DNA from: Phycisphaeraceae bacterium
Lineage (GTDB): Bacteria > Planctomycetota > Phycisphaerae > Phycisphaerales > Phycisphaeraceae
Assembly (NCBI GenBank): GCA_002686995.1
Contig: NYZC01000403.1
Coordinates: forward strand, 20,109 to 84,108
Length of the DNA stretch: 64,000 nt
Direction: 5' to 3'
The notes under the pieces were generated by a model. It made no database searches and was not told the origin of the DNA. It was given only the letters and a program-made list of their open reading frames with translations. Positions within the stretch are counted from its first letter, which is position 1. Every line of letters begins with the position of its first letter. Below, piece after piece: positions 23,121 through 43,262 of the stretch. A program made the translations under genes and the position numbers.

Positions 23121-24392
23121 TCAGCCGACCTCCGGCGCCGAGGGACGTTTGAGGAAATCCTCGGGGATCGGGCGGGCCTTCCGCCCGGCGCTGACCGTCC
23201 GGTCGTACAGATCGAGCATGCGGGGAAGCACCGCGTCGAGGCTGTAGTCGCGCTGAATGAAGTCCATCGCGTTCTCGCGGATCGACCGGTACGCGGGCGG
23301 ATCCTCCAGGATCTCGACGACCCGCGCGGCGATCTGCTCGGGGTCGAAGAAGCTGACGAGAAAGCCGTTGCGGCCGTCGGTGATCATCTCGCGCACGGGC
23401 GCCGTGTCGGAGCCGACGACCGCCGCGCCGCAGGCGAGGGCATCCATCATCGACCAGCTCAGGACGAACGGGACCGTGAGGTAGATGTGGGCGTCGCCCA
23501 CCGAGAGGATCGCCGCCAGCTCGGCCGGCGTCTTCCACCCCACGAACATGAACTTCGACAGGTCGTACTGGTCCCGGCTCAGGACGTAGTGCCGCAGCGA
23601 CTTCGCGTCGCCGATCTGCTCCTCGTCGCCGCCGTAGCAGATGCGATCCGTGCCGACGACGAGGAACACCACGTCGGGGTAGCGCTCGTAGATGATCCGG
23701 GCCGCCTGCATGAACATGTCGAAGCCGCGCATGCGCTCGAACCCGCGGGCGCAATAGGTGACGATGCGCGTCTGCGGGCCGATCGTCCGGTCGAGGTAAC
23801 GCCGCGGCGGATCCGCCACCCGGTGGTAGACGCCCGTGTCGACGCCGTCGAAGACGACCTCGAGCTTGGGCTGAAAGATCCCGGGAAACACGCTCTTCTG
23901 GAACCCGGTCGGCACGTAGCCGGCGTCGCAGTTCACCAGGTCGAGCTGGATCATCGCGTTGCGGATGCTCGAGCGGAGGATCTTCTGCTCGTTGATCGGG
24001 GCGTCGTGGCGGTAATCCATGTCCGAGTGTCGCGAGTGGTAGTAGTACTCGAACATGTTGATGATCGGGCAGTCGTGCAGTTCCGGAAGGAAGATCGTCG
24101 AGCCGAATCCTGAATGGCCGACGATGAGGTCGGGCTTGACGTCGCTCCGTGCCTTCAGCGCCCGGTAGACGCCTTCGGCGTGCGCCACCGCCGTCTCGAA
24201 CGTCCGGGTGTAGTAGGAGTTGTGCTTCGTCGCCCCGCCGCGAGTGATGTACTGAATGCGCTCGATGCCGTCGAACAGCCCGGGATCGCGCTCCGACACA
24301 AACGTGCAGCGCCACCCCTTCTCGCGGACGAGGTGCGCCGCGATATGGCCGAACTGGGCCGGGAAGTTCTGATGGACGTAAAGAACGTGCAT
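23121..24392 (-). CDS. Glycosyltransferase family 4 (GT-B, group 1)
   Basis: MHVLYVHQNFPAQFGH... N-domain. The C-domain has FVGW...PFVLSWSMMDALACGAAVVGSDTAPVREMITDGRNGFLV, typical of GT4. Confidence 0.85.
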   Translation of the reverse strand: MHVLYVHQNFPAQFGHIAAHLVREKGWRCTFVSERDPGLFDGIERIQYITRGGATKHNSYYTRTFETAVAHAEGVYRALKARSDVKPDLIVGHSGFGSTIFLPELHDCPIINMFEYYYHSRHSDMDYRHDAPINEQKILRSSIRNAMIQLDLVNCDAGYVPTGFQKSVFPGIFQPKLEVVFDGVDTGVYHRVADPPRRYLDRTIGPQTRIVTYCARGFERMRGFDMFMQAARIIYERYPDVVFLVVGTDRICYGGDEEQIGDAKSLRHYVLSRDQYDLSKFMFVGWKTPAELAAILSVGDAHIYLTVPFVLSWSMMDALACGAAVVGSDTAPVREMITDGRNGFLVSFFDPEQIAARVVEILEDPPAYRSIRENAMDFIQRDYSLDAVLPRMLDLYDRTVSAGRKARPIPEDFLKRPSAPEVG

Positions 24393-24432
24393 AAGGGAAG
24401 GGAGCGAGGAGCAGGGCGCGGCGAGGGGAGCG

Positions 24433-25848
24433 CTAGACGCGGCTCGTCACCTTCGGAACCGGTTCGAGCCGGGGCGGAGGGTGGGGGTTCCAGGTCGACG
24501 GCCGGGGCGGGTATCGATGCCCCTGCGCCTGGAACAGTCGACGGCCGAGCGTCACCGCGCCCGGCACGATCGGGTCGGACTTATGGCCGCGACCGGCCAG
24601 CATCTGCCGAAGGGCCCCGTCGAAGATGTCGAGCAGCTTCTTCGTGAGGTTCGGGTTCTCCGCCGCGATGTTCCGGGTCTCCCCGGGATCGTCCAGCAGG
24701 TCGAAGAGCACGACGGGCGGGCTCGAGCGGTAGTCGCACTCGCGCGACACGATGAGCTTGTACTCGCTCGTGCGCAGGGCCCAGGCCGCCTGCCAGGTCG
24801 ACTCGCAGGCGATCAGCTTGTGGTTCCAGTGCGACATCGTCGTCTCGCCGCGAGCCAGGGGCAGCATCGACCGCCCCTCGATCAGGTCCTCGCGCAACGA
24901 TTCCCCGACGGCTTCGACCACGGTCGCGGCGAGATCCTGGTGCTGCGTCAGGGCCTGGACGCGCCGCCCCCCCTTCAGCCCGGAAGGCCAGTGCAGAATC
25001 AGGGGCACGTGCAGGCTCGCGTCATGCAGGCCATGGGCGTCGAAATAGACGCCGTGCTCGCCCAGTTGCTCCCCGTGGTTGCCGTAGACGATCAGAAGCG
25101 TGTCGTCGAGCCGGCCCACCCGCTCGAGGGCGTCGCACAGGACGCCCACGGCGTCGTCCACGGCACGGACCTGGGCGTCGTACTGGGCGGCGATGAAGTC
25201 GATGTCCTCGATACGCTGCCCGGATGTGCTCGGCCAGCGCTGCAGGAGGTCGCCAAACCACTGCTTCGGCCAGTTCTCGCCCGTCGGACGGCGGTAGAAC
25301 TCGTCGAGGCTGCCGACGTTCGTCGTCGTCGGATCGGCGTCGTAGAACAGCCCCATGCGATCGTCAGCCGGCATGTACGGCGCGTGCGCGTCCGGATAAT
25401 GCATGTGCATGAAGAAAGGCGCGTCGCGCCCGGTCTCGATCCATTCGATCGCCAGATCGTTCACGTTCGCCGCCGTGGTCCGCTCACCGCGGCGGCGGGG
25501 ATTCAGGTAGTAGCGATAGCCGCGCGCGAACCAGGTCCGATGGTCGACGAGATCGTCGACCGCGACGGCGTCGATGCCGTGGTGACGCATCAGCAGGGAC
25601 AACCAGGTGATCTTCGGGTTGAGCCCGGACGACGCGTCCTGGTTCAGGATCAGGTGCGTCAGCGGGTGGGTCCCGCTGAACACCGTCGTCATCGCCGGCA
25701 TCGTCCCCGTGATCGGCGTGAAGTGGCGCTCGAACAGGACGCCGCCGGCCGCCAGGGCGTCGAGTCGCGGTGACGTGGAACGCGGGTAGCCGTAGCAGGA
25801 AAGGTGATCGGCGCGGACCGCGTCGAGCGCGATCATCACGACGTTCAT
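24433..25848 (-). CDS. Sulfatase-like alkaline-phosphatase-superfamily hydrolase/transferase (Thr in the nucleophile position)
   Basis: NVVMIALDAVRADHLSCYGYP...TSPRLDALAAGGVLF is a sulfatase-fold N-terminus. The C/S-x-P-x-R motif is replaced by T-M-P-A-M. No signal peptide or TM helix is visible. Confidence 0.8.
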   Translation of the reverse strand: MNVVMIALDAVRADHLSCYGYPRSTSPRLDALAAGGVLFERHFTPITGTMPAMTTVFSGTHPLTHLILNQDASSGLNPKITWLSLLMRHHGIDAVAVDDLVDHRTWFARGYRYYLNPRRRGERTTAANVNDLAIEWIETGRDAPFFMHMHYPDAHAPYMPADDRMGLFYDADPTTTNVGSLDEFYRRPTGENWPKQWFGDLLQRWPSTSGQRIEDIDFIAAQYDAQVRAVDDAVGVLCDALERVGRLDDTLLIVYGNHGEQLGEHGVYFDAHGLHDASLHVPLILHWPSGLKGGRRVQALTQHQDLAATVVEAVGESLREDLIEGRSMLPLARGETTMSHWNHKLIACESTWQAAWALRTSEYKLIVSRECDYRSSPPVVLFDLLDDPGETRNIAAENPNLTKKLLDIFDGALRQMLAGRGHKSDPIVPGAVTLGRRLFQAQGHRYPPRPSTWNPHPPPRLEPVPKVTSRV

Positions 25849-25965: not shown

Positions 25966-28900
25966 TCAGGCGATGAGACCGAGGTTCGCGATGAAGCCCT
26001 CGATCGAGCTCACGCCACCCGGGTCGGCGATGACGTCGTCCTCGCTGAAGACCATCATGTCGCCCGTAGGCGAGTTCGTGCCGCCGTCGATGAAGTCGGA
26101 GCGCCGGCCGCCGTCGATCAGGTCGTCGCCGCCGAGACCGAAGATCGAGTCGGAAGCGTTTCCGCCGCGAAGCGCGTCGTTCAGGTTCGTGCCGACGATG
26201 GCCTCGAAGTTCCGGACGCTTTCGATCAGGAAGATGCCGGAAGGCGTGCTTCTCGCCATCTTCGCCGCGAGGTCGACGTAGACGCCGGTCGACGTCAGCA
26301 GGCTGAAGTCGATCGAGTCGCCCCTGCCGCCGCCGCCGGAGATCTTCGTGTTGGTCGTCGTCGGCCCGATGTCGACGATCTGGATGATGTCGTCGCCACC
26401 GCCACCGTCGATCTGGTTGCCGTCCGAGCCTTCGAAGTCGACCATGATCAGGTCGTTGCCCGAGCCGCCCTTGACGCGGTTCTTGTCGCCGTCGATCTCG
26501 ACGTCGATGTCGTCGTTGCCGGAACCGCCGTCGACGATGTTGTTGTCGCCTTCGATGTCGGCGTCGATGTCGTCATCGCCGGAGCCGCCGGCGATGCGAG
26601 ACCTGTCGATGTCGGTGTTGACGTTGATGTCGTCGTCACCACGGCCGCCGTCGACCCGGATGCGCTCGCCGTCACCGACGTTGATCACGTCATCGCCCCG
26701 GTCGCCCTTGGCGATGCTGCGATCGCCCTCAATCGTGAGGACGTCGTTGCCGTCCTTTCCGTTGAGGTTGTCGCGACCGCCGTTACCGTCGACGACGTTG
26801 TCCTGGCTGTCGCCCGTGAACCGGTCGTCACGCGGCGTCAGGATGAAGTCCGTGACACCGCTCACCTCCACCCTCGTACCGTCGGAGAGCGTGAGGCGTC
26901 CGGGTCGGTTCGGGTTCTTGCTCAGCGAGATGACCACGCCCCGGCTGGGACGTCTCGGATCCGCAGGATCGCCCGAGAGGTCCATCGTGCCGCCCGGAAT
27001 GTCGAGCGTGTCTCTGCCGGGACTCGAGTTCACCGTGAGGCCGGTGCCGGCGAGGATGTCGTCGAAAGGCGATCCCGTGACGCCGCCGACAGGACCGTTG
27101 AAGTCGAGCGTGCTGCCGCCCGACACCGGGCCGGGGCCAACGGTGTCGCCATCGAAGGTCACGCCGGACACGGAGTTCGAGAAGTCGACGAGGTTGTTGC
27201 CGCCGCTGTCGTTGATGACGTTGGCGTCCGTCCCGCCCGGCTCGATGATGTGCGTGTCGTCACCGAGGCCGGTGTTGATCGTGTCGCTGCCCGCCGAAGA
27301 CCGGATCGTGTTGTTGCCTTCGCCGGCGCCGATCAGGTTGTTGCCGGACGTGCCGGTGATGTTGTCGTCACCGCTGCCGGTGAAGAGGTTCTCAATCGAA
27401 TTCGGCGCCAGCGTGTTGTTGCCGATCTCGGCACTGTCGAACAGCGTGCCTGCCGCCAGGTCCGCCGTAATGGGCAGGGTGGTGAAGGCGGCGTCGATGT
27501 CGTCCGTGCCGGTGCCCCCGTCGATGTTGTCATCGCCGAGACCGGCCAGGAAGGTGTCGTTGCCGCCACCGCCGTCGAGGTCATCGTTGCCGTCGCCGCC
27601 GATGATGTCGTCGTTGCCGTCGCCGCCGTCGATCACGTCGTCTCCGCCGGCACCGTCGATGTTGTCATTACCGGGGCTGCCGGTCAGCGTGTCATTGCCG
27701 GGCCCGCCGGTGAGCGTGAGCCCGCCGCCTGCACCGGAACCGTCGATGTTGTCATCGCCGGAGCCGCCGATGATGTTCTGAATGTTGGAATGGGTGTAGT
27801 TGAAGGTGGTGCCCGTGGCGGTCGTCGCCGTCACGGTGACCGGATCCGTCTGGTTCGACATGTCGAGCGTGTTGCTGCCGCCGTCGCCGTCGAGCGTGTC
27901 GTTGCCGGTATTGCTGACGAAGAACGTGTTGTCGTTGGCATCGCCGGCAAGATTGTCGTCGCCGCTGCCGCCGGTCAGGTCCTCGAAGTTCGCCAGCTGG
28001 TCGACGCCGGGGCCGGCGCCGAGGCCGCTGCCGATGCCGGGCGCGATGCCGTCGAGATCGACGGTCACGCCGGTGGCATTGGACTCGTAGCTGGCAAGGT
28101 CGGTGCCGCTGCGACCGTCCATCGTGTCGCCGGCGACGTCATGGCCGCCGCCGTCGATCTTGTTGTCGCCGCCGTCACCGCTGAGGATGTCGTCCTGCGG
28201 GCTGCCGAGGATGTCCTCGATGTCCACGATCGCGATCGTCATGCCCGGCACCACCGTGCCCGGCCGGTTCGTGTTGGCCGTGCCCTCCCCCGCGTCCAGG
28301 TCGACCTGGACGCCGGTCGTGAAGCCGCTGTAGTCCACCTGGTCGGCGTCGCTGTCGCCGCCGACGATGCGCTCGATGTTAGTCAGGCCGTTGGCGTCAT
28401 CGGCATGGGTCACGCTGTTGCCGAGGCCGTCCGTCGCCGTGACGCTGTTGATACCGAAGTTGATCGCGGACGTCGCCGCGAAGTTCGTGAAGTCGTCGGC
28501 CGTCAGGCCCAGCAGGTCGAGATCGGCCTGCACGAGGTCCGTCGGAGCGAACAGGCCGAAGCTCATCGTGTCCTCGTCTCCAGCCTGGAACGACTCGGAG
28601 GCCTCGTCGACCACGATGTCGTTGCCGAAGCCGTCGGAGAAGAAGAAGTCGTCTTCGTCGGTGCCGCCCGTCAGGCTGTCGTCGCCGCCTCCGCCGATCA
28701 GCGTGTCCCGGCCGCCGTCGCCATTGAGCGTGTCGTTGCCGTCGGCGCCGAGCAGCAGGTCGGACCCGCCGCCGCCGAGCAGGGTGTCGTTCATGGGACC
28801 GCCGACGAGCGTGTCGGCGCCGAGACCGCCGGTCAGGGTGTAGGGGCCGCCCGTGCCGCCGTACAGAATGTCGGGGAACGCACTGCCGACCACGCCCTCC

Positions 28901-31900
28901 ACGTTCGCGTAGGTGTCGGTGCCGCCGGTGCCGTCCTCGGACGAACCGGCGTCCACGCGGACGCGGACGCCCGTGGGCGCTCCGGCGAAGCTGACCTGGT
29001 CGATGCCGTCACCACCGTCGATCTCGTCGTCACCGTCGTTGCCGCCGCCGCCGCCGAAGCCGCCGCCGGCAACCGTGTCGTTGGCGGCCTCGCCGAGCAG
29101 CGTGTCGTCGCCGAGCCCGCCGTTGATCGACTGGGCCTGGCCGTCGCCGCGAAGCGAGTCGCTGCCGTCACCGCCGATGATGTCACGAATGTTGTCGATG
29201 CCGCCGGATCGCACCAGGTCCACCGTCGTCACACCGATGCCAAGATCGCTGTCGAAGCTGGCGTCGCCGGTGGTCAGGTCGACCTGAACGTCGAACGCAG
29301 TCGTCGAGGGGAAGATGCCGGACGTGATCACGTCGGAGAAGTCGATCGTGTTGATGCCGCCGGCACCGTCGATCGATCCCGTGCCGCGTGCCAGCGGGTT
29401 GAGGATGCCCGACCCGTTGGGATTGTTCCGATGGAGCCACTCGAACACGTCGTTGGCCGTGCCGCCGGTGATGTTCTCGAGGTCGTCGCCGCCATGCGTG
29501 ATGGAGTCGCCGGCCGAGGTCGCGGTGACGCTCGCCATGGTGACCGTGATGGCGCTGTTGATCGCGCTCGGGTTGAACGCTCCGCCGAAATCGGGCGGAA
29601 GCGTCGGCCCGGCGAAGCCGTTGAAGGTCAGGGCGTCCTCGCCTTCGTCCTCGGCCTCTACGATCGTGTTGGCCGCGCCGAAGCCGCCATCGCTGGTCGA
29701 GTCGGTCACGACGTACAGGTCGTCGTCGCCGCCGCCGTTCAGCGTGTCGTTGCCGGCACCGGCCACGAGCGTGTCGTCGCCCTGGCCGCCTTCGAGCGTG
29801 TCACCGTTGGCGCCGACGCCGCGGGCGATCAGCAGATCGTTGCCCTGGTCACCGAAGAGGTTGTCCAGACCGCTGCCGCCGGTGTCGCCGGCGTCGAGCA
29901 CGTCGTCGTCATCGCCGCCGCGAAGGGTGTCGTCGTCATCGTCCGAGCCGCCGTGCAGGCTGTCATCGCCCTGCAGACCCTGGATCGAGTCGTCGCCGAC
30001 GAGACCGCGCAGGATGTTGGCGAACTCGTCACCGGTGATCACGTCGTTGTTCGGCGTGCCGGTTACGTTCTCGATGTTGTGCGGCACGTTGGCCGTCACG
30101 GTCGTGCGGTTGACAGGTGCAATGGTTCCGTCGTGCTGCGTCTGCAGCGTCGGGGTGGTGCTGAGGTCAGCGACCAGCGTGTCGAAGCCGGGACCCCCGC
30201 CCTGGAGGACGCGCGAACTGTCCAGCGTGTCGTCACCGCCGCCGGGCTGCTCGTCGACCGTGTCGATTTCGCCACCCGTCGTGATCGAGTCTGACTGGTA
30301 GGTGTCGTCGCCCGCGCCGCCGACCAGCAGGTCGTCGTCGGTGGCCAGCACGGCGATGCCGTTGCCGTTGAGCGTGTCGTTGCCGTCGAGACCCGTGAGG
30401 GTGTCGTCGCCGGCATTGCCGAGGAGGCTGTCGTCCGCCGTCGAGCCGGTGATGTCATCCGGACCGGGCGTGCCCACGACACCTTCGATGTTCGCGATGC
30501 TGTCGACGCCCTGATGCACGCCGGTGCCGAGGTTGATCACCTGGCCGGTGCTGCCATCGGGATCGACGTTGCGATAGTCGATGCTGTCGACCGTTCCGGC
30601 GGGGCTGCTGCCGCCGTCGAACGAGCCGAGACCGGCGGGCGCCTCGGTGCCGAACGGGATGGGCATGTCGGCGCCGTTGTCCGTGAAGCGGAAGAAGTCC
30701 GTGCCGCTGCCGGTCAGGATCGACTCGATGAAGTCGCCGGCCGCATTAAGGAATTCCGAGCCGTCGGTGACGTTGATGGACGAGAGCGTCACGACCAGGT
30801 CTTCGCTCAGTGCCGACATGTCGAGCACGTCAGCGGTGCCTTCGCCCGTCAACTCGGTGATGACGTCGCCGCCGCCAGCCGAGAAGTTGTTCTGCACGTA
30901 CTCGTACGTGTCGTTACCGGTGTTGCCGATCAGTGTGTCGTCGCCGTCGCGACCGGTGATCGTGTCATCGCCGGCGTTGCCGGTCAGCACGTTGGCGCCG
31001 TTGTCGCCGATGAGGATGTCGGCATCCGCACCGCCGATGGCGTTCTCCATGGTTCTGGTGGTCACGGCGCCCGTGATGGTGCCACCCGTGTCGGCCTGGC
31101 CGGAGCCGGTGAATGCAGCCGCAAAATCTTCGCCGGTGAAATCGACGGTCACGACCGTGCCGACGGCCTGGCCTGCGTAGTTCAGCGTGTCGCCGGCGCC
31201 GGTGTCGGCGCCGCCGGTGATGTCGAGCGGCGAGCTCTGGGTCGGCGTGAACGTATCGTCGCCGGCATTGCCGTCGACCGTGATGCCCGCGTTCGCCGCG
31301 ACGATCTCGATCGGAACCAGGCCGCCGACCGCGACGCGCGTCGTGCCCGGCGCGCCGTCGCTGATGCCGATGGCGTCGTCGCCACCCGTCGCCTCGACGA
31401 CCACGGCGTCGGTGCCGTCACCGGTGTCGAGCGTCAGGGTGGTGACGTTGAACTGCGTGATCTCGAAGTCGACTTCCTCCTCGAAGCCGTTGCCGGGAAC
31501 GCTGTCGGCATCGGTGTCGACATCCAGCGTGGAGGTGCCGGCGCTCGGGTCGGCCGGGGTAAAGACCGCGCTGTCGTCCGAGGACGTCAGGTTCACGACG
31601 ATGTCATCGGCATCGTTGTTGTCGGTATCGCCGCCGTCCAGGAAGAACTCCGTGACATCCGAGGTCGCGTCACCCACGCCGTTGACGGTGACCGTCTCGT
31701 CCGAATCTTCCTGGCCGTTGATCTCGACCTCTTCGATGCCCGTGAGGGCGATCGGACCGCCCACGACGCCCGTGATCTGGTCGGTCGTGAGATCCACGGT
31801 CACGCTGTCGTCCGGATCGAGATTGACCGTGATTCGATCGCTGGCGGTGGGCGGACCGCCGTCGAAGGTGATGCCACCGGTGAAGATCGCGAGATTGGTC

Positions 31901-34900
31901 CCGTCGATGGTGAGCGTGTCGTCCTCGCCGCCTGTCGCGCCGCCACCGAAGTCAAGGTTGTTGATCCCAACGAGCGTCACCTCGTCGCCGTCGAGCGTCA
32001 CGGTCGGGTCAGGTGCGGCGTTCGCGTCGATCGTCCAGTCGTCGTTGTCCGTGTCGTCGCCGACGAACTGCACCTGGTCGGTGCCGCCGTTGCCGTTGAT
32101 GGTCACGTCGTCGTCGAGCTGCGTGCTGTCGACGAGGACCACGTCGTCGCCGGCCGAGCCGTTGAGGGTGTCCTCACCGCCGCCGCCGTTGACGACGATG
32201 CCGGGCGCCAGCGCGAGCGTGTCGTCGCCGGTCGAGCCGATGACCGTTTCCATCACGCCGGTGACGGCGAGCGTGTCGCCGCCGTTGATGTTCTGAACCT
32301 GCCCGGCGGTCTGGCCGACGTCGAAGGTCACGCCCCCGCCGAAGAACTCGAAGCTCAGCGAGTCGTCGCCGCTCGAGTCGTTGATCACGTCGGCCGATCC
32401 CGGCTCCTCGAAGTACTGGTCGTTGCCGTCGCCGCCGTCCATCGAGTCGTCGCCGGCCAGACCCTGAAGCTGGTCGTTGCCGTCGCCGCCGATGAGGTCG
32501 TTGTCCGCGGCACTCCCCAACAGCACGTCGTCCAGCGTGGTGCCCGTGACGTTCTCGACGAGACCGTCGCCGGAAATGCTGTTGGTGACGTCGTTGCCGT
32601 CCGTGACGGTGCCGGCGTCGAGATCGACGGTCACGCCGGCCGTCGGCGTCCCGATACCGGTGTTGGTGGCCAGCGAGAAGTCGAGTGCGTCGTCCGTACC
32701 GCCGCCGCCGTTGACCGTGTTGACACCCCAGGCATCGCCGATGAACCGGAAGGTGTCGTCACCGGCGCTGCCGTTCAGCACGTTCGATTCGTTGTTTGCC
32801 GTGAAGTCGTCGTCGCCGTCGCCGCCGAACAGCTGCTGAATATTGGCGATGCCGCCCGCGGCGCCGCCGTTGACGTTGGTGGCCGAACCGTCGTTCAGGT
32901 TGACCGTCACGTCTGTCGTGAAGTTCGACGTCAGACCGTAGTCGCCGCCGTCGTAGCGCAGCTGGTTCGTGCCGGTGCCGCCGTCAATCGTGCCGTTGAG
33001 GAAGTCGCCGTCTTCGTCGAAGGCGATGATGTCGTTGAAGCTGAAGCCGACCTGCGTGTCGAGAATGATGTTCTCGACGTTGTCGTCGATGTGCTGCACG
33101 ATCGTCGTGGCGTTGGCGCCCGGCGTGCCGGGATCGCTGTCGACGGTGATCGAGCCGAGGATGACCTCGACCGCCTGGCCGATCGTGGACAAGTCGATCG
33201 TGTCGTTGCCCTCGCCCGTGCCTTCGTTGACGTCGTCGGTCGTCGCGGCGTCGGTGATAACGAAGGTGTCGTCGCCCGTGCCGCCGGTCAGGGCGTCGGC
33301 GCCCGCGAGGCCGCTCAGGGTGTCGTTGCCGCCCTGGCCGATGAGCGCGTTGACGCCACCGTCGCCGGTGAGCGTGTCGGCAAAGGCGCTGCCGGTCGCA
33401 TTTTCGAAGAGAATGATGCCGCCCGTGCCGGTGGCCGTCGGCGTCGGGACGACCGAGAGATCCACGGCGACCGCGGAGGCATAGTTGGTGTAGTTGATGG
33501 TATCGCTGCCGGCGTTGCCGGTGATGATTCCAGCGCCGCCGCCGAACACCGCCGCGCCGCTCAGGCTGACCAGGTCGTCGCCGCTGCCCAATCGCATCAC
33601 GAGGAACCCGTCGCCGGTGTGCGTGATCGTGTGAGTGGCGTCAGCGATCGTGAAGCTTGCCGTGATGTCGACCGTCAGGTTGTTGGTCGTCGCGGATAGA
33701 TCCACGACGTCGCCACCGGATCCGGAGATCACGTCGTTGCCGAGCGCCACGCCGGCCGGGTAGAGCAGTGTGTCGGTGCCGGCGCCACCGTTCAGCACGT
33801 CGTCGCCCTCGTTGCCCTGGATCGTGTCGTTGCCCACGCCGCCGGTCAGCGTGTCGGCCTGCGTGCCGCCCTCGAGCACCTCGAAGTTGAGGATCGACGA
33901 GACGATCGCCGTCAGGTCGGCCTTGGCCGCCGCGCCGCCGAGCGTCGCCGAGACGCCCTGCGTCGTGTAGTTGAAGGTCAGCGTATCGGACGTGACATGC
34001 CCGCCGCCGTCGATGACCGTGCCGGCGCCGCCGATCACCACGTTGTCCGCGACGTTGAACTGATCGTCGTCCGCGGTGCCGATGATGACCTCGACGTCGT
34101 TCGCCGCATGGGTGACCGTGTTGCCGCCCTGGGTCACCGTCACGGACGCGAAGTTGGCGGTGATGCCGCCGGCCGTCACGTTCGAGAAGTCCATCGTGTC
34201 GACGTCCGCGCCGACGGCCTCGGACACCGTGTCGGTGCCCCAGGCGTCGAGGAACACGAAGTTGTCGCTGCCGGCGCCGCCGTCCAGCGAGTCGTTGCCG
34301 GTTCCGCCGTCGATCGTGTCGTTGCCGCCCCCGCCAGCGAGCGTCTCGTCGGCCGCGCTGCCGGTCAGGCTGTCTGCACCGTCGCCGCCCGTCACGTTGA
34401 CGAACTCACCGCCGCCGAACGTCGAAAGCGTGATTCCCGCGGCGCTGATCGTGCCGGCGCCCAGGTCCACCGTGGCCGCGGCCGCGACACCGGCGAACGT
34501 CATGATGTTCGCCTGGCCGTTCGCCGCGTCGAGGATGCCGACGCTGTTGACGCCCTGGATGACGCCGCCGCCGCCTTCAGTGATTTCACCGCCGTTCGTA
34601 CCGGCGGCGTAGGTGATCACCACGCCGATGTCGTCCACTTCGAGCGTGTCGGCGCCGCCGCTGCCGATGATGCTGTCGGTGCCTTCGGCCGCGGCAATGT
34701 CATAGATGTCGGCACCGCCGCCGCCGGTGATCGTGTCGTTGCCCCCACCGGGAATGAACGTCTCGGCCGCGGAGGTGCCGACGAAGGTGTCGGCGGCGGC
34801 CGTGCCGATCGCGATGGTGAAGCCGCTGACCGACGTCGGGAAGTTCGGCGTCACGACGCCGGTCGCGAAGTTGACCGTCTCGGGGCCGGCCTCGCCGGAG

Positions 34901-36501
34901 AGGTCGACGGTGTTGGCCTGCGCCGGATTCACGTCCAGATCCGTCGCGCCGTTGATGCCCGTCACGGTGAATACACCGTCGTCCACGGTGTCGGCCGCGG
35001 AGTCGTAGGTCAGGTCGCGCGTGACGCCGGTCATGTTGACGATGTCGCCGGCGCCGGTCGTCAGCACGTCGTCGCCGGGGTTGGCGCCCTGAAAGATCAA
35101 TTCGTCCGCGTCGGCCTCACCGTCGATCGTGTCGGCGCCGTCGCCGCCCTCGATCGTGTCGGCCCCGGCGCCGCCGGCGATCGTGTCGTCGCCGTCACCG
35201 CCGCGGATGTCGTTCGCCGCGGTGCTGCCGGTCAGGTCGTCCGCGTTGGCCGAACCAATGATGTTCTGGAAGTTGTCGGCGTTCTCGGTGTTGCCGTCGC
35301 CGTCGTCGGTAATCTCGTTCGCGGCGGAAAGATCGACCGTGACCGCGGCGGAGCCGTTGGCCAGGCTCAGGGTGTTGGTGCCGGTGCCACCGTCGAGCGT
35401 GTCCGTGCCGTCGCCACCCTCGATCGTGTCGTCGCCACCGCCGCCGACGAGCGACTCGCCCGTGCCGTCGTCGTCGCCGCGGATGTCGTCATCGCCCGAG
35501 CCGCCGGTGATCGTGTCGAAGTTGTCGAGCGTGTCGGCGATCGAGTTGTCTAGGTTGTCGGTCAGGTCCAGGTTGAGGCCGGTGGTGTACGCAGTCGCGT
35601 CCAAGGTGTTGGCGCCGGCACCGCCGTCGAGCGTGCCCGTGCCATTGCCCAGCTCGAGCCCGTTGCCGATCGTCACCGTGTCGTTCGCGCTACCCAGCAG
35701 GACCGACTCGATGGTGTTCGCGGTGTTGGTGATGGTCTGCGCCGTCACGGTGTCCGTGATCACCAGGCCGCCGCCGGTCAGGCCGACGGTCGTCACGTTG
35801 GGCACGGCGGTCCCGGTGTACAGACCGGTGGCGCCGATCGTCGCGCCCTGCAGGTCGACCGTATCGGTCCCGCCGTCGTCGATGATCGTGTCGTTGCCGT
35901 CGCCCGCCTCGTAGAGGAACACGTCGTCGTTCAATCCCGGATCGAACGGCTCCGCGTCGCCGCGCAGCGTGTCGGTGCCGATGTGGCCGCCGAGCACGTC
36001 GTCACCGTCGCCGCCGATGATCGAGTCGTCGCCGACGCCGCCGATGATCGTGTCGTTGCCGTTGCCGCCTTCGATCGTGATGCCGTAGGCCACGCCGTCG
36101 CCGGGCGCAGCGGTGCCGACGTTCACGATGTTCGCGGCGGTGGTGAAGCTGTCGTCGTCGTCACCGAGCTGAACGAGGATCTCGTTGACGTTGTCGAACG
36201 TCGGGCCGGCGCCATTGAGAATGTCGCCCGCTCCGTCCGCGACCGTCACGCGACCGTCCGTGCCGTCACTCGAAAGCGCGACCGCGTTGGCCTCGTTCGC
36301 CTGGTCGATCAGCTCGAGCCGGAACCCGCCGCCGGGCAGCGGCACCAGCGTCGCGTCGAGCAGCACGCGCGGCTCGAGCGCTTCGACGGCGAAATCGCGC
36401 TGCGAAGGCACGAACTCGCTGCGCGTCCTGGCGCGACGGCGCGAACGCTGACGACGGTTGACTTCATGCTTCTGATGCCTCTTTTGGCGCCGCTTGGACA
36501 T
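25966..36501 (-). CDS. Giant RTX-type (haemolysin-type Ca2+-binding GGxGxD repeat) secreted protein/adhesin, 3,511 aa
   Basis: More than 100 GGxGxDx(L/I/F) nonapeptide units, e.g. GGNGNDTIIGGVGDDSIIGGDGDDVLGG. The protein is extremely Gly/Asp/Thr/Asn-rich and I saw no Cys. The N-terminus is highly basic, followed by ALEPRVLLDA. The C-terminus is an RTX block followed by an acidic tail. Confidence 0.9.
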   Translation of the reverse strand: MSKRRQKRHQKHEVNRRQRSRRRARTRSEFVPSQRDFAVEALEPRVLLDATLVPLPGGGFRLELIDQANEANAVALSSDGTDGRVTVADGAGDILNGAGPTFDNVNEILVQLGDDDDSFTTAANIVNVGTAAPGDGVAYGITIEGGNGNDTIIGGVGDDSIIGGDGDDVLGGHIGTDTLRGDAEPFDPGLNDDVFLYEAGDGNDTIIDDGGTDTVDLQGATIGATGLYTGTAVPNVTTVGLTGGGLVITDTVTAQTITNTANTIESVLLGSANDTVTIGNGLELGNGTGTLDGGAGANTLDATAYTTGLNLDLTDNLDNSIADTLDNFDTITGGSGDDDIRGDDDGTGESLVGGGGDDTIEGGDGTDTLDGGTGTNTLSLANGSAAVTVDLSAANEITDDGDGNTENADNFQNIIGSANADDLTGSTAANDIRGGDGDDTIAGGAGADTIEGGDGADTIDGEADADELIFQGANPGDDVLTTGAGDIVNMTGVTRDLTYDSAADTVDDGVFTVTGINGATDLDVNPAQANTVDLSGEAGPETVNFATGVVTPNFPTSVSGFTIAIGTAAADTFVGTSAAETFIPGGGNDTITGGGGADIYDIAAAEGTDSIIGSGGADTLEVDDIGVVITYAAGTNGGEITEGGGGVIQGVNSVGILDAANGQANIMTFAGVAAAATVDLGAGTISAAGITLSTFGGGEFVNVTGGDGADSLTGSAADETLAGGGGNDTIDGGTGNDSLDGGAGSDNFVFLDAWGTDTVSEAVGADVDTMDFSNVTAGGITANFASVTVTQGGNTVTHAANDVEVIIGTADDDQFNVADNVVIGGAGTVIDGGGHVTSDTLTFNYTTQGVSATLGGAAAKADLTAIVSSILNFEVLEGGTQADTLTGGVGNDTIQGNEGDDVLNGGAGTDTLLYPAGVALGNDVISGSGGDVVDLSATTNNLTVDITASFTIADATHTITHTGDGFLVMRLGSGDDLVSLSGAAVFGGGAGIITGNAGSDTINYTNYASAVAVDLSVVPTPTATGTGGIILFENATGSAFADTLTGDGGVNALIGQGGNDTLSGLAGADALTGGTGDDTFVITDAATTDDVNEGTGEGNDTIDLSTIGQAVEVILGSITVDSDPGTPGANATTIVQHIDDNVENIILDTQVGFSFNDIIAFDEDGDFLNGTIDGGTGTNQLRYDGGDYGLTSNFTTDVTVNLNDGSATNVNGGAAGGIANIQQLFGGDGDDDFTANNESNVLNGSAGDDTFRFIGDAWGVNTVNGGGGTDDALDFSLATNTGIGTPTAGVTVDLDAGTVTDGNDVTNSISGDGLVENVTGTTLDDVLLGSAADNDLIGGDGNDQLQGLAGDDSMDGGDGNDQYFEEPGSADVINDSSGDDSLSFEFFGGGVTFDVGQTAGQVQNINGGDTLAVTGVMETVIGSTGDDTLALAPGIVVNGGGGEDTLNGSAGDDVVLVDSTQLDDDVTINGNGGTDQVQFVGDDTDNDDWTIDANAAPDPTVTLDGDEVTLVGINNLDFGGGATGGEDDTLTIDGTNLAIFTGGITFDGGPPTASDRITVNLDPDDSVTVDLTTDQITGVVGGPIALTGIEEVEINGQEDSDETVTVNGVGDATSDVTEFFLDGGDTDNNDADDIVVNLTSSDDSAVFTPADPSAGTSTLDVDTDADSVPGNGFEEEVDFEITQFNVTTLTLDTGDGTDAVVVEATGGDDAIGISDGAPGTTRVAVGGLVPIEIVAANAGITVDGNAGDDTFTPTQSSPLDITGGADTGAGDTLNYAGQAVGTVVTVDFTGEDFAAAFTGSGQADTGGTITGAVTTRTMENAIGGADADILIGDNGANVLTGNAGDDTITGRDGDDTLIGNTGNDTYEYVQNNFSAGGGDVITELTGEGTADVLDMSALSEDLVVTLSSINVTDGSEFLNAAGDFIESILTGSGTDFFRFTDNGADMPIPFGTEAPAGLGSFDGGSSPAGTVDSIDYRNVDPDGSTGQVINLGTGVHQGVDSIANIEGVVGTPGPDDITGSTADDSLLGNAGDDTLTGLDGNDTLNGNGIAVLATDDDLLVGGAGDDTYQSDSITTGGEIDTVDEQPGGGDDTLDSSRVLQGGGPGFDTLVADLSTTPTLQTQHDGTIAPVNRTTVTANVPHNIENVTGTPNNDVITGDEFANILRGLVGDDSIQGLQGDDSLHGGSDDDDDTLRGGDDDDVLDAGDTGGSGLDNLFGDQGNDLLIARGVGANGDTLEGGQGDDTLVAGAGNDTLNGGGDDDLYVVTDSTSDGGFGAANTIVEAEDEGEDALTFNGFAGPTLPPDFGGAFNPSAINSAITVTMASVTATSAGDSITHGGDDLENITGGTANDVFEWLHRNNPNGSGILNPLARGTGSIDGAGGINTIDFSDVITSGIFPSTTAFDVQVDLTTGDASFDSDLGIGVTTVDLVRSGGIDNIRDIIGGDGSDSLRGDGQAQSINGGLGDDTLLGEAANDTVAGGGFGGGGGNDGDDEIDGGDGIDQVSFAGAPTGVRVRVDAGSSEDGTGGTDTYANVEGVVGSAFPDILYGGTGGPYTLTGGLGADTLVGGPMNDTLLGGGGSDLLLGADGNDTLNGDGGRDTLIGGGGDDSLTGGTDEDDFFFSDGFGNDIVVDEASESFQAGDEDTMSFGLFAPTDLVQADLDLLGLTADDFTNFAATSAINFGINSVTATDGLGNSVTHADDANGLTNIERIVGGDSDADQVDYSGFTTGVQVDLDAGEGTANTNRPGTVVPGMTIAIVDIEDILGSPQDDILSGDGGDNKIDGGGHDVAGDTMDGRSGTDLASYESNATGVTVDLDGIAPGIGSGLGAGPGVDQLANFEDLTGGSGDDNLAGDANDNTFFVSNTGNDTLDGDGGSNTLDMSNQTDPVTVTATTATGTTFNYTHSNIQNIIGGSGDDNIDGSGAGGGLTLTGGPGNDTLTGSPGNDNIDGAGGDDVIDGGDGNDDIIGGDGNDDLDGGGGNDTFLAGLGDDNIDGGTGTDDIDAAFTTLPITADLAAGTLFDSAEIGNNTLAPNSIENLFTGSGDDNITGTSGNNLIGAGEGNNTIRSSAGSDTINTGLGDDTHIIEPGGTDANVINDSGGNNLVDFSNSVSGVTFDGDTVGPGPVSGGSTLDFNGPVGGVTGSPFDDILAGTGLTVNSSPGRDTLDIPGGTMDLSGDPADPRRPSRGVVISLSKNPNRPGRLTLSDGTRVEVSGVTDFILTPRDDRFTGDSQDNVVDGNGGRDNLNGKDGNDVLTIEGDRSIAKGDRGDDVINVGDGERIRVDGGRGDDDINVNTDIDRSRIAGGSGDDDIDADIEGDNNIVDGGSGNDDIDVEIDGDKNRVKGGSGNDLIMVDFEGSDGNQIDGGGGDDIIQIVDIGPTTTNTKISGGGGRGDSIDFSLLTSTGVYVDLAAKMARSTPSGIFLIESVRNFEAIVGTNLNDALRGGNASDSIFGLGGDDLIDGGRRSDFIDGGTNSPTGDMMVFSEDDVIADPGGVSSIEGFIANLGLIA

Positions 36502-36946
36502 GGTGGAGTACCCCTAGGAGCACTTGGACTGGGGTCGCGTCGACCCGAGACCTGCATTGCTCTGCGCTGCTCTGCGACTTGGTGTGCGCGAATACAGAAT
36601 ACGAAAGTTCCAAAATGGCCGGATATTCCGTCGCAGGACGGCTTATCGGGACCACACAAGTTCAGACTTTAGATTACTGAGCCAATTTCTCAACTTCAAA
36701 GCGCGGCGCTTCGACGCATCGTCAACGACCGATATTGCGTCGCCGCGTGGTGCTGGCGGTCTCATCGTGCCGCATCGCACCGACAGGATTTCCAGTAACG
36801 ACTCCGATAGCGTCGTTGTTGTCGGTGATGTTCAGGGGGAGCGTCCTTGCGAAGATCTCTGGTTCTATTGTCCCGAAACCGGGACGAGTCCTGATACGTC
36901 CCGATCTGCCCTGGCTCGCGCCAGCTCCGTCGAACCGGCCGGGAGT

Positions 36947-39094
36947 CTAACCGAGCGGCATCGTCCGGTCCAGCCAGTCGTCTCGCCGAACCAGCGAGCG
37001 CCGGATGTCGCCGGCCCGCGTCCGAATCCGCCGACGCGCCCATCCGATCAGAGCCCGCGAGACGATTCGCGGCGATGAAACACGGCCGGACTCGGCCTTG
37101 GCGCCGGCAGCATACATGCGGCGCAAACACTTTACAACCCAGGATGCCTCCCATGTGTAAAAAAGGTCCTCCAAACTTATAAAAAGCTGACAGGAATTCG
37201 ACGGCCCGTTCCTGGCGGCACGACCGATAAGTCGCTCGGCGTCACGCACCGCCGAGGGTTCGTGCCCGACGACGATGACCTGCACCGATGCGTCGATCGC
37301 GTCTCGCTCATCGGCCGCCGCGCCGAGGCGCCCGCCCTGCCCGCCGACCACCGTGATCGCGCCGGGCACTGCGAGCCGATCCAGCGCCGACGCTTCGCGG
37401 TCGGGCTGCACGCCGGTCACCTGCCCGGCGTCCATCCCGCGCTCTGTCAGCAGGTCGCCGATGCTACGCACGCCGGCAGCCGAGCCCGTCACGACCAGGA
37501 CCGGCATCCCTTCCCGATAACACCTCTCGGCCTCGTCCGCGACAAGGCCGTGCATGCGCGCCGTGGCGGCGACGAGGCGCGGGGTCGCCGCGAACGTGCG
37601 GTCCCGTCTTGCCGTAAACCCCCGAAGAATAAGACCATACATCTGCGATAACTCCCGCCGACGGAGGCGGCACGACGTGGAGGACACGCCGCAAAGTACG
37701 CGGTAGAGGCGGAAGAACCGCTGGAGGCTCAGGCTTGCCAGCGTCCTGCGCTCCGCCGTGATCTCGAGCCCCTCCTTCGCCTCGATCGCCTGCTCGACGC
37801 CGAACTGACGTCGACGGTCGGGCAGATAGGTCTGGCCCGTGGACGGGTCGATCATGATCACGCGATCCTCGATGACGTCGTAGTCGCGTCCCCGCTCGTA
37901 GCAGATGGAGGCGGCGAGAGCCCGCTCGACCACCTCGCGGCGCCGGCGGTCGCCGTGCCAGAACGCCGTGTCGATGCCGGCCTCGTCGGGCTCGTCGATC
38001 TCGGCCAGGCGAATCCACCCCTCGTCCGTCAGCCGGACGATCCGGCGATCGGAGTGCACTATATAGTCCACGTCCGCCACCAGGTCCCCGGCCAGTCGGA
38101 CCGCCCGGCGCAGGACGTCCGGCGCGGTATGGGGCCCGGGGACGGTGGAAATGACCAGCGGGGAGATCGCATCGTCCAGCAGCGTGCCGTCGATGTCGTC
38201 CACGATCGCGGCGTGCAGGCCCGGCACGGTGATGCGCTCCGTGGCGGCCGCGGATGCCGCGACCGGGGTCATGTGCTCGATGACCGCCTCCCGCGCCGGG
38301 CCGAGACGAATCTGGTCGCGCAGCCAGTCGCCGATCAGTTGGCGCGCCGCCACGTACACCACCGGGTGGCGGTAGGCCGCAAGCTTCCGGTCCCGGGGCT
38401 GGCCCGCCTCGACGTGGGCCGCCGCAAGCCCGGCCCGGCGCAACAGCGGCGCCATCGCGCCGCCGTCCCGCGCCGCCTGGAAATCATTCGCCACCACCAC
38501 GTGCACCGATGGATGCGACCACCCGGCAAGCACGGCGGCGAGCGCGACGACCGGAGCCCGTGGCGTCGCGCCCGCCAGCGCCGCGGCCTGCCCGTGAAAA
38601 AGAGCCAGCGCCGCCGCCACCTGCGTGTCGTGAGGTCTCTGACCGATCTCTCTCGCGGCCATCTCCCGCACGCACGCCATCGCCTCGGTCAGCGACGACG
38701 GCGACACGGGTCGGCGGGCGAATGCTTCGCGCAGCCGCGCGGCGCGCTCGTCGAGCTCGGGCTCGGACAGGTCCTGATATTGCGGGCCGAGCCGGTCGAC
38801 CTGCGCGGCGAGCTGCCGGCAGCGCCGAACGCGGCCCGGAACCTGTCGCATTCGCGTCACCCATCTTCCCACCAGACCGTCGAGACCCCATGCCACCGGC
38901 GCGCGGCGACGCCGGGTCGTAAAAGACCACCACATGGCGTCGTAGCGTCCGATTGCCTGCGTCATCAGCCTGCTCCCGCCTTGCCGGTGCGTCGCCCGGG
39001 CGGCGGCCCCGGAATTGTTAATTAATGCACAGGATACAGGAACCGGGCCGCGATGCAAGTCCGGCGCGGGAAGGAGACGGAGGATTCGGGGCAT
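36947..39094 (-). CDS. SecA-like protein with degenerate ATPase motifs
   Basis: Collinear with SecA across the DEAD motor and preprotein-binding regions (LSEPELDERAARLREAF; VHVVVANDFQAARD; IVDDIDGTLLDDAISPLVIS; QFGVEQAIEAKEGLEITAERRTLASLSLQRFFRLY; PVLVVTGS). Walker A, Walker B and motif III are not conserved. An alternative start is the ATG at 38965. Confidence 0.8.
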   Translation of the reverse strand: MPRILRLLPAPDLHRGPVPVSCALINNSGAAARATHRQGGSRLMTQAIGRYDAMWWSFTTRRRRAPVAWGLDGLVGRWVTRMRQVPGRVRRCRQLAAQVDRLGPQYQDLSEPELDERAARLREAFARRPVSPSSLTEAMACVREMAAREIGQRPHDTQVAAALALFHGQAAALAGATPRAPVVALAAVLAGWSHPSVHVVVANDFQAARDGGAMAPLLRRAGLAAAHVEAGQPRDRKLAAYRHPVVYVAARQLIGDWLRDQIRLGPAREAVIEHMTPVAASAAATERITVPGLHAAIVDDIDGTLLDDAISPLVISTVPGPHTAPDVLRRAVRLAGDLVADVDYIVHSDRRIVRLTDEGWIRLAEIDEPDEAGIDTAFWHGDRRRREVVERALAASICYERGRDYDVIEDRVIMIDPSTGQTYLPDRRRQFGVEQAIEAKEGLEITAERRTLASLSLQRFFRLYRVLCGVSSTSCRLRRRELSQMYGLILRGFTARRDRTFAATPRLVAATARMHGLVADEAERCYREGMPVLVVTGSAAGVRSIGDLLTERGMDAGQVTGVQPDREASALDRLAVPGAITVVGGQGGRLGAAADERDAIDASVQVIVVGHEPSAVRDAERLIGRAARNGPSNSCQLFISLEDLFYTWEASWVVKCLRRMYAAGAKAESGRVSSPRIVSRALIGWARRRIRTRAGDIRRSLVRRDDWLDRTMPLG

Positions 39095-41295: not shown

Positions 41296-43182
41296 CTACC
41301 ACCAGAGGGCCAGGCGCAGGAAGTCGACGAGCTTGTGGGTCATGATCCAGATGACGCGGCGCGACGCGACGTCGATCTTCGCCACGCCCTCGAAGCCCGG
41401 GCGCATCCAGTCCTCCTCGCGCTCCAGCTCGCAGTAGACCGGGAAGAAGGTTCCGCCCTCGTGAGCGACGCCCACGGGCACCACGCGCGTCACCGTGAAG
41501 TTCACGGTGACCGACGGGTTGCCTCGGGCGGCGAGTGCGCCCGTGCCGCCGAGACGCACCTGGTCGATATCGCGCTCGTCGACCCGGATCATCGCCCGCA
41601 GCAGCGGACGGCCGTCCTCGCTGCCGTGCAGCGGCGCGACCTCGAACAGCGTCTGGCCCAGCTCGACCCGCACGCCCTTGCGCTCCTGCCAGTCGCCCGT
41701 CACGACCACGCCGTCCTCGACGGCCACGATGTGCGCGTCGGCGATCTGCCGGGCGTAGAGATCGCGCTCGACCTCGTACACGCGCATCATCGCCTTGTAA
41801 CGCTCGGCGTCGTCGGGCGATCCGCCCAGGGAGCGCCGGTGATCGATGATCGCCACGGCCAGCTGGCTCTCGGCGCCGTCCCGCATCAGCTCCAGCGGCC
41901 GCGCATCCATGCGCACCAGCGGATCGCCGGCCTTCACCGGGTCGCCGTTGCGGGCGAACACCTCCTCGATGTGCCCGGTGTAAGGCGACGCGTAGACCCG
42001 CTTCTCGCGCGCCTCGAAGACGAACGGCGCCTCGACTCGGTAGTTCCATTTCACGAAGCACGACGCGATCAGCAGCACGCTCACGGTGAGCGCGACCAGC
42101 TTCAAGCCGACGTGCTCGGGACCGATGACGCGCCCCGCGAGCGTGCGCAGGTCCTGCCAGAGCTGGACCGCGGCGGGGCGGTCTCCGCGATGCCGGTCCG
42201 CCAGCGCGGGCGCGACCAGGTCGGCGATCACCTGGAACTGCGTGACGTCCGAGCCTTCGAACGGCCGGCTGCGGGGGCGCTCCGCGGTCAGCACCCCCCC
42301 GATCTCGTCGCCGTGACGAAGCGGCACGGACACGACGCCCTCCTGCTCGGTCGCCAGCTCGTGATGACAACGGCTGACCACCTGCTGCAGCCACTGGTCT
42401 TCGCCCTGGAAGTGATCGGCCGGCGCCGCCACGGCCCGGCCCTGGTCCATGCACTCCTCCATCGCCGACGCGATGGCCTCGCTCAGCTCCTGGCGCCGAT
42501 CGACGTTGTCCGTGTCGCTCATCGCCACGAGCCGGATCGAGCTGCCGCGCGCCCACCCGATCGCGACGCGCGACGCGTTCAGCTCGACGGACAGGGCATT
42601 GCACACCGCCATGCACGACTCGTGAAACCGGCCCGCCTGCTGCGCGGCGGTGAGCACGCTGAGCGCGCGGCGGGCGCCGGCGTTCTCGCGCAGCTGGCGC
42701 CGAAGACCCCGGGAGGAAAGGTGCAGCTTGTAGAGGCGGGCCGCCCACTGCAGGTGCGCGAGGAAGGGCTGAATCCGCTCCTGGTCCTGGTCAGGGGCCA
42801 GGACGACCGCGATGCCGTCGGTCGCGGTTTCGGACTCGAGCGGCGTGCAGATCGCGTGATAGACGCTGTTGCCCATCGCGATGCGGTAGACGCTGAGCTG
42901 CCCGGCCTTCTCGCACCGCTGCACGCAGTCGCGCAGGATCTCCACGCGGTCGGGCTCGACCTGCACGTGCCGACCGGGCGCCATGGGATAGACGGTGACG
43001 AGGCGCGACGGCTGGTCCTCGCGAAGCACGAACACGGCGCCGGAGACGCCGCCGACCAGCTTCGCCATCAGTTCGATGAGCAGCGTGAGAAACGGCAGGT
43101 CCTGGCCGGCCGCCGCCTCGACCTGGGCCGCAAGCTGCTGAAGCTGATCGTTGGTCACCTTGGTTGCCGTCGCCGGAGGCAT
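41296..43182 (-). CDS. Tandem-GAF-domain protein fused to an HlyD-family membrane-fusion (periplasmic adaptor) domain
   Basis: Two GAF-like cytoplasmic modules, a single TM helix (LKLVALTVSVLLIASCFV), then HlyD-type lipoyl and beta-barrel segments (YASPYTGHIEEVFARNGDPVKAGDPLVRMD). The stop lies 6 nt before the next gene's start. The start is set at the ATG at 43182; the track ORF extends to 43272, into a repeat. Confidence 0.8.
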   Translation of the reverse strand: MPPATATKVTNDQLQQLAAQVEAAAGQDLPFLTLLIELMAKLVGGVSGAVFVLREDQPSRLVTVYPMAPGRHVQVEPDRVEILRDCVQRCEKAGQLSVYRIAMGNSVYHAICTPLESETATDGIAVVLAPDQDQERIQPFLAHLQWAARLYKLHLSSRGLRRQLRENAGARRALSVLTAAQQAGRFHESCMAVCNALSVELNASRVAIGWARGSSIRLVAMSDTDNVDRRQELSEAIASAMEECMDQGRAVAAPADHFQGEDQWLQQVVSRCHHELATEQEGVVSVPLRHGDEIGGVLTAERPRSRPFEGSDVTQFQVIADLVAPALADRHRGDRPAAVQLWQDLRTLAGRVIGPEHVGLKLVALTVSVLLIASCFVKWNYRVEAPFVFEAREKRVYASPYTGHIEEVFARNGDPVKAGDPLVRMDARPLELMRDGAESQLAVAIIDHRRSLGGSPDDAERYKAMMRVYEVERDLYARQIADAHIVAVEDGVVVTGDWQERKGVRVELGQTLFEVAPLHGSEDGRPLLRAMIRVDERDIDQVRLGGTGALAARGNPSVTVNFTVTRVVPVGVAHEGGTFFPVYCELEREEDWMRPGFEGVAKIDVASRRVIWIMTHKLVDFLRLALWW

Positions 43183-43262
43183 GAATCGACAAGAATAACA
43201 TGCGGGGCCGGGGGCCGGGTATCGGGTTCCGGGGCGCGGCGTTGCGATGCCGCCGTCATAGC

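Follow-up and report, generated by a model that had tools for sequence, protein, structure and literature searches.

The protein described here belongs to the LEPR-XLL class, in which a short motif of about 24 residues lies at the extreme N terminus of very large planctomycete proteins and is suspected of being an export signal. The sequence RRLxxExLExRxLLA was presented as a presumed novel N-terminal export signal of Rhodopirellula baltica cell-surface proteins (PF07595; Studholme et al. 2004, cited by Seeger et al. 2021, PMC8567305). In Tuwongella immobilis a related motif is found on 52 proteins, including 8 of the 10 longest, with 20 of the 52 detected by proteomics and 8 of those detected only in the sodium dodecyl sulfate fraction (PMC8567305), and a 2026 preprint places 'LEPRxLL' domains on both giant Chlorochromatium proteins. 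The curated NCBIfam model of the class is NF012209, 'LEPR-XLL domain-containing protein' (LEPR-8K), with 24 positions. The subject of this analysis is a giant protein that carries this tag, encoded in the window (the whole 64,000-nucleotide stretch analysed from contig NYZC01000403.1 of a Phycisphaeraceae bacterium), together with a cassette of three genes that lies upstream of it on the same strand. The giant protein is a new member of the already named class, differing from the original description in that it passes NF012209 but not PF07595.

The cassette corresponds to the conserved locus that Kamneva, Poudel & Ward 2015 (PMC4452313) described as 'secondary SecA_DEAD', with which it shares the three adjoining gene types, SecA_DEAD, Peptidase_M50/HlyD and GAF/HlyD. 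That paper names no cargo or signal, whereas the LEPR-XLL cargo class is here tied to the locus, and a second difference is that the SecA-like copy in the window lacks its Walker A motif. The type I systems for RTX (repeats-in-toxin) adhesins and toxins (HlyA/HlyBD-TolC and LapA/LapBCE) resemble the locus in having a giant, acidic, Cys-free RTX protein, HlyD-type adaptors and a presumably one-step route, whereas the cassette has no ATP-binding cassette (ABC) exporter, the conserved signal is N-terminal, and a SecA-like protein and a site-2 protease (S2P) take the inner-membrane positions. The bacteriocin exporters (peptidase-containing ABC transporters such as CvaAB-TolC) share an N-terminal leader, an exporter-built protease domain that recognises and presumably removes that leader, and an HlyD-type adaptor, but they carry small peptides and use a C39 cysteine protease and an ABC motor, whereas the cargoes here can be thousands of residues long and an S2P/M50 domain, fused to a RiPP recognition element (RRE; RiPP, ribosomally synthesized and post-translationally modified peptide), serves as the protease. 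The RiPP systems themselves, including lasso-peptide B1 proteins (5v1v, 6jx3) and the daptide protease NF041824, are similar in the RRE fold of the approximately 90 N-terminal residues and in the protease match but differ in that a RiPP precursor and modifying enzymes are missing here and the presumed leader sits on giant proteins.

The LEPR-XLL tag and the cassette are each already known separately, and the substantive result is the link between the two and the leader-binding fold. In the literature searched, no paper gives the NF012209/PF07595 motif an export machine or connects the tag with the cassette, so the remark in the initial annotation of this DNA that the role of such N termini is unexplained holds for that literature, but the comparative data now supply a concrete candidate route. 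The tag is probably an N-terminal leader read by the neighbouring cassette, which would act as an ABC-less, type I-like exporter of the giant protein. The elements on which this reading is built are as follows.

25966 to 36501, minus strand: coding sequence of the giant RTX-repeat protein (P0001), 3,511 amino acids, Cys-free and acidic
36421 to 36501, minus strand: polybasic n-region, residues 1-27, with 16 Lys, Arg or His
36331 to 36393, minus strand: LEPR-XLL domain match (NF012209), residues 37-57, with the LEPRVLL core at 36358-36378
36947 to 39094, minus strand: short SecA-like protein, 715 amino acids, SecA_DEAD at 186 bits plus the preprotein cross-linking/binding domain
39154 to 41289, minus strand: RRE-S2P/M50-HlyD fusion, 711 amino acids, weak PqqD match, Peptidase_M50 at 25.9 bits, HlyD
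41296 to 43272, minus strand: GAF-HlyD adaptor, 658 amino acids, GAF at 31.9 bits, HlyD_3 at 34.9 bits

Co-occurrence and adjacency of tag and cassette

In two distant lineages the tag is linked to the cassette both by shared presence in genomes and by adjacency. In a sample of 301 Planctomycetota genomes, with the tag scored by NF012209 at E <= 0.05 and the cassette by the protease fusion at E <= 1e-10, 52 genomes are tag-positive and 81 cassette-positive, and the cassette is present in 47 of the 52. The five tag-positive, cassette-negative genomes have single or weak matches (best E 0.004-0.047), and the cassette is found in all 32 genomes with a tag match at E < 0.003. Within families of mixed presence it is the same genomes that are positive for both (f2, 4 of 5; f9, 2 of 7; f10, 1 of 2; f13, 2 of 3; f28, 1 of 2). 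An independent replicate of 301 genomes from the order containing Marinobacter suaedae has 46 tag-positive and 84 cassette-positive genomes, with the cassette in 45 of the 46 and the lone exception being a weak tag match in a 72-residue frame. The correlation of the motif with the SecA-like/M50/HlyD trio, which had been proposed as a check in the initial annotation, is found in both samples.

Most tag-positive genomes of the Marinobacter order have exactly one tag match, and when tag and cassette share a contig (30 pairs, with the length of the open reading frame (ORF) allowed for) they lie within 5 kb in 26 cases, within 11 kb in two more and far apart in two. In nine of 80 cassette loci gathered across many phyla the SecA-like gene is followed at once by a tagged ORF, in the gene order seen in the window. 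This cassette-neighbouring ORF is the sole NF012209 match of the genome in four cases, from Marinobacter, Comamonadaceae, Opitutales and Limisphaerales, and a Nitrospira genome has three tagged giants of 2,948, 4,548 and 1,574 amino acids placed head to tail just upstream of its cassette (G302:C1:375346-402614, by L114). The host genome of the window contains a second cassette on contig C446, 32-38% identical to the first, with a divergently oriented tagged ORF at a distance of 246 bp, which is cut off by the end of the contig; both cassettes of this genome directly adjoin a tagged ORF.

The cargoes beside cassettes vary in size and content. Single tagged ORFs of 13,000-14,700 amino acids are found beside the cassette at G303:C154:88400 (L168, Comamonadaceae) and, in the Marinobacter order, at G391:C1:3518859 and G382:C1:756782. 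The cassette-adjacent cargo of Marinobacter suaedae (L136:13593-14042) has a LEPR-XLL leader followed by a DUF4347 domain (31.4 bits).

The cassette proteins and the proposed export route

Residues 1-420 of the protease fusion, modelled with AlphaFold2 from a 49-sequence alignment (mean predicted local distance difference test score (pLDDT) 85.4, predicted template modelling score (pTM) 0.74), match the S2P of M. jannaschii (3b4r), and the first approximately 90 of them match lasso-peptide B1 proteins whose crystal structures include the leader peptide (5v1v, 5v1u and 6jx3) with template modelling (TM) scores of 0.67-0.76, normalised to the target. The sequence profile of the fusion finds the PqqD structure 3g2b at E = 0.0018 and also finds S2P and MacA/EmrA/HlyD-type adaptors. 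The HExxH residues His-209, Glu-210 and His-213 are invariant, and the daptide HExxH protease model NF041824 matches the fusion at E = 4e-51 with 174 bits, below its cut-off of 300. By its RRE, S2P and HlyD-type matches, the cassette joins a module for leader binding to a membrane protease and to an adaptor of the periplasm in one fused protein. The initial annotation had described the giant gene as lying beside an unusual secretion-like operon.

The SecA-like protein of the window shows a marked difference from its relatives. Walker A (TGEGKT) is kept in 93 of 94 aligned cassette SecA-like proteins (92 other loci, the C446 paralogue and the window copy), and the pathway therefore normally has an ATPase; the window copy alone lacks the motif, with ALAGATPRAPV at that place, whereas the C446 paralogue is intact. 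The window copy is thus predicted to be ATPase-dead, and its cassette may depend on the C446 copy or may use the SecA-like protein only as a binder.

In the proposed route the first approximately 57 residues of the giant protein would form an N-terminal leader, composed of the basic n-region and then a strand-like (F/L)-E-x-L-E-P-R-x-L-L-(S/T/D) segment, which the RRE-S2P-HlyD protein would recognise and bind through its cytoplasmic RRE domain. The SecA-like protein would handle the unfolded chain, with the C446 cassette and its intact Walker A possibly supplying the motor. A single step would take the chain outward along a conduit formed by both HlyD-type adaptors together with a TolC-like outer channel whose gene lies elsewhere. 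The S2P domain would probably clip the leader off, and once outside, the RTX repeats would fold under the drive of calcium and so favour outward movement.

Several points weigh against this reading. The link between tag and cassette rests on comparative evidence throughout, the cleavage of the leader is purely inferred, and the window SecA-like copy is without Walker A. No inner-membrane channel is evident in the cassette besides the S2P domain, and no TolC gene is present in the window, with the genome holding only sub-threshold OEP matches. The tagged genes of Planctomycetota are mostly dispersed: a tagged neighbour is found at 13 of 60 cassette loci using a looser motif within ±9 kb and at 7 of 60 using the strict hidden Markov model (HMM), in windows of a size that misses the N termini of giant genes, and strict adjacency as a rule in this phylum is rejected on these counts. 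Dispersed cargoes are expected if few machines serve many cargoes, but one to three cassettes would then need to serve dozens of them. Finally, the cassette occurs without the tag in 34 Planctomycetota and 39 Marinobacter-order genomes. Part of this class is explained by variant leaders that NF012209 misses: large ORFs by the divergent Planctomycetota cassettes L089, L090, L091, L092, L093 and L096 open with M..MEERIVLDG/LEERIVLDA, which has no polybasic stretch and is overlooked both by NF012209 and by the HMM built from the host genome's own tags.

Taken beyond the single locus, the balance tips modestly toward LEPR-XLL acting as the address tag in a one-step secretion pathway that is distinct and has no ABC transporter, its parts being a SecA-like motor, the RRE-S2P-adaptor fusion, the GAF-adaptor and an outer-membrane factor. 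It would typically carry one giant adhesin-like cargo in proteobacteria and verrucomicrobia and would have become, in Planctomycetota, a general route taken by dozens of surface proteins that are acidic and poor in Cys. If true, this would amount to a secretion system not yet numbered, with its signal published in 2004 and its machine in 2015 but the two left unconnected, and a leader-guided, ABC-less exporter would join the tripartite secretion systems. The export route of giant planctomycete surface proteins that have no classical signal peptide has been an open question since 2004, and the connection with the cassette makes it testable. It also yields an annotation rule, in that a strong NF012209 match predicts the presence of a cassette and often its position.

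The leader and the LEPR-XLL class in the host genome

The LEPRVLL core forms residues 42-48 of the giant protein (nucleotides 36378-36358) within the sequence ALEPRVLLDA, at the position given in the initial annotation. NF012209 scores 25.1 bits on the protein compared with a cut-off of 17, which places it within the curated family, and in a six-frame search of the genome the same protein scores 31.1 bits, the second best of all matches. Pfam PF07595 (Planc_extracel, gathering threshold 25.5 bits) does not match residues 1-100 at E <= 10, and reaches 16 bits on one paralogue. Residues 1-27 contain 3 Lys, 11 Arg and 2 His, so that the polybasic character noted earlier is correct while the count of 15 basic residues is one too few. 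The ATG at 36501 is the first start codon past the upstream in-frame stop, and GTG codons occur also at positions 31, 46 and 53 of the ORF. The true start does not lie past the motif, the case that the initial annotation had named as a refutation, and these later codons are rejected as starts on three grounds: the ATG comes first after the stop, basic n-regions recur in homologous leaders of lower GC, and the GC content at third codon positions (GC3) of codons 1-41 is 0.73, above the 0.54-0.60 of the upstream leader DNA. The lower-GC leaders were examined because translated GC-rich non-coding DNA also yields Arg and the n-region could have been an artefact of this kind; the leaders of lower-GC genomes have Lys-rich n-regions immediately after the Met, and in other phyla too the motif of homologous leaders beside cassettes is preceded by a basic n-region. 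The polybasic segment of the giant protein is an extreme form of this general feature.

A basic n-region is also present in Sec and Tat signals, and the host genome has a canonical SecA on contig C121, features that would fit a tag acting as an unusual signal of the general Sec (SecYEG/SecA) pathway or of Tat, with the cassette linkage reflecting only co-regulation. Against this, no hydrophobic h-region is found in the first 115 residues, where the highest 15-residue Kyte-Doolittle mean is 1.31, in keeping with the earlier statement that a hydrophobic signal peptide is missing; because there is no h-region, the leader is judged from its sequence to be neither a Sec nor a Tat signal. The linkage argues in the same direction, since the single tagged cargo adjoins the cassette where a genome has one and tag-positive genomes are almost never without a cassette, and the class-wide lack of Cys described below argues against periplasmic folding. 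A Sec or Tat signal is thus very improbable, and the reading of the segment as a leader for the cassette is retained.

The host assembly comprises 7.8 Mb in 446 contigs with 66.5% GC and is 87.6% complete. NF012209 gives 54 matches at E <= 1, of which 46 lie above the cut-off. Tags were counted using the HMM built from the genome's own copies, with the motif lying no more than 150 residues from the upstream stop, a limit within which 75 of its 80 matches start. The approximately 75 tagged ORFs have lengths of 98 to 9,028 amino acids (median 1,300) and total 131,324 amino acids, about 5% of the DNA; 24 of the 75 touch a contig end, which makes 75 and 5% lower bounds. The giant repetitive LEPR-XLL genes are, judging from those 24, apparently frequent assembly break points. 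The consensus of the tag in this genome is (L/F/I)-E-x-L-E-(P)-R-(L/V/I)-L-L-(S/T/D)-(A/G) with an Arg-rich stretch before it, and the motif occurs far beyond chance. It is strongly enriched at the N termini of giant ORFs, being found on 18 of 30 coding-like ORFs of at least 2,000 amino acids with the N terminus on the contig, and on 8 of 13 of at least 3,000 amino acids. The statement in the initial annotation that LE(D/P)RxLL recurs on very large planctomycete proteins is therefore confirmed, both by the existence of a curated domain and by the number of ORFs in this genome, and the enrichment proposed as a check is found.

The tagged ORFs share a distinctive composition. Downstream of the tag the median Cys content is 0% compared with 1.14% in 1,321 control ORFs, with 32 of 61 tagged ORFs Cys-free and 48 of 61 having two Cys or fewer, and the net acidity is 9.7 acidic residues per 100 compared with 1.2 in the controls. 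The Cys-free state is a trait of the tag class and not of the RTX protein alone. This depletion is consistent with proteins that are exported unfolded and form no disulfides in the periplasm; the composition of the class is that expected for export in one step, and the route through the cassette would account for its Cys-free, acidic character. The domain content is varied and of extracellular type: nine sampled tagged paralogues contain cadherin, Ig-like, SdrD_B, CARDB, DUF11, dockerin, PPC, beta-helix and beta-propeller domains, with RTX repeats in only one of the nine.

The DNA preceding the giant gene forms a separate feature.

36502 to 36946, minus strand: intergenic leader DNA, 445 bp, lower GC

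The length and lower GC of this region had been pointed out in the initial annotation and are confirmed, with the GC dropping to 0.49-0.61 compared with about 0.67 in the flanks. A scan of 36300-37100 with Rfam gives no match at E <= 1, and one sigma-70-like promoter match is located at 36693-36666, about 165 nucleotides ahead of the ATG. A sigma-54-like -24/-12 element, TGGCAC-N5-TTGC with no more than one mismatch, is located 35-46 nucleotides ahead of five small tagged ORFs of 183-501 amino acids (contigs C203, C239, C179, C369 and C359). The element is present upstream of 6 of 67 tagged ORFs compared with 13 of 930 control ORFs. A shared upstream regulatory motif was rejected, the element being enriched ahead of a few small tagged genes but missing from the 36502-36946 leader.

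The RTX chain and the question of a C-terminal signal

The giant protein is, as part of the explanation taken as a whole, probably a calcium-binding surface or secreted protein of the RTX/beta-roll type. It contains no Cys in 3,511 residues, as first noted, and is composed of 18.2% Gly, 14.4% Asp and 11.4% Thr, with 614 Asp and Glu against only 81 Lys and Arg, the latter concentrated in the first approximately 30 and the last approximately 500 residues (from about residue 3,000). HemolysinCabind (PF00353) is the sole Pfam family found, with 19 stretches and a score of 252 bits, and models of RTX toxins and of serralysin match in part. The calcium-binding RTX nonapeptides give 64 motif matches from about residue 100 to about residue 3,400. 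This distribution along nearly the whole chain contradicts the earlier description of RTX repeats confined to a C-terminal block.

25969 to 26964, minus strand: C-terminal approximately 330 residues, a final RTX-like repeat run richer in Lys and Arg than the body and ending in ...GFIANLGLIA, a candidate C-terminal signal

The last RTX-like repeats are followed by a 40-residue tail. Were the protein exported by a classical type I route, its real signal would be this tail together with the C-terminal RTX block, used by an ABC/HlyD/TolC system encoded elsewhere, and the N-terminal tag would have another role or none. The PF00353 score and the partial RTX toxin and serralysin matches fit such a substrate, as do an MsbA-like ABC pair beside an HlyD-like adaptor on contig C22 and TolC-like OEP proteins, all of them below cut-off, and an ABC exporter could have been missed in an assembly of this completeness. 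Within the 87.6% complete genome, however, no ABC exporter of HlyB/PrtD/LssB type comes up to a curated cut-off, with TIGR01846, TIGR01842 and TIGR03375 all giving scores below threshold. The best ABC protein has 419 bits compared with the TIGR01846 cut-off of 725.55, and it scores higher with MsbA-type models and with a model of cyanophycin-associated ABC proteins, where its 674.5 bits also fall short of the 880-bit cut-off. The two best ABC loci, on contigs C237 and C22, were rejected as type I exporters, their matches being of MsbA or cyanophycin-associated type and all below cut-off, with one of the two beside a weak HlyD-like gene. The repeats running along the whole chain form no single C-terminal block, and across phyla the tag is both conserved and tied to a dedicated cassette. 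A classical type I route is on these grounds quite unlikely. The initial annotation had proposed two candidate targeting signals; the N-terminal one stands, whereas a second, C-terminal type I signal is poorly supported, given repeats that span the chain, the lack of an ABC exporter above cut-off and RTX repeats in one of nine paralogues.

The tag could also serve in retention and release. The protein would then leave the cell C terminus first by a type I route, the RRE would tether the LEPR-XLL segment, and the S2P domain would cut it under control of the GAF adaptor, in parallel with LapA, LapG and LapD. The cassette does bring together a domain that binds peptides, a protease and a GAF domain of sensor type, the RTX repeats of the giant protein reach to about 40 residues from its C terminus, and the linkage of tag and cassette also fits this arrangement. 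It is nevertheless unlikely: with RTX repeats in only one of nine sampled paralogues, the rest have no recognisable C-terminal type I context, and the HlyB/PrtD/LssB-type exporter that would carry the chain out is not found at cut-off. The conserved partner is moreover SecA-like and carries a preprotein-binding domain, and the N terminus is the end from which canonical SecA handles a chain. Export led by the N-terminal tag through the cassette remains the preferred reading.

Directly downstream of the giant gene and on the same strand (23121-25848) are a sulfatase-family protein (132.6 bits) and a family 4 glycosyltransferase (GT4, 148.5 bits), which might act as modifiers of the cargo.

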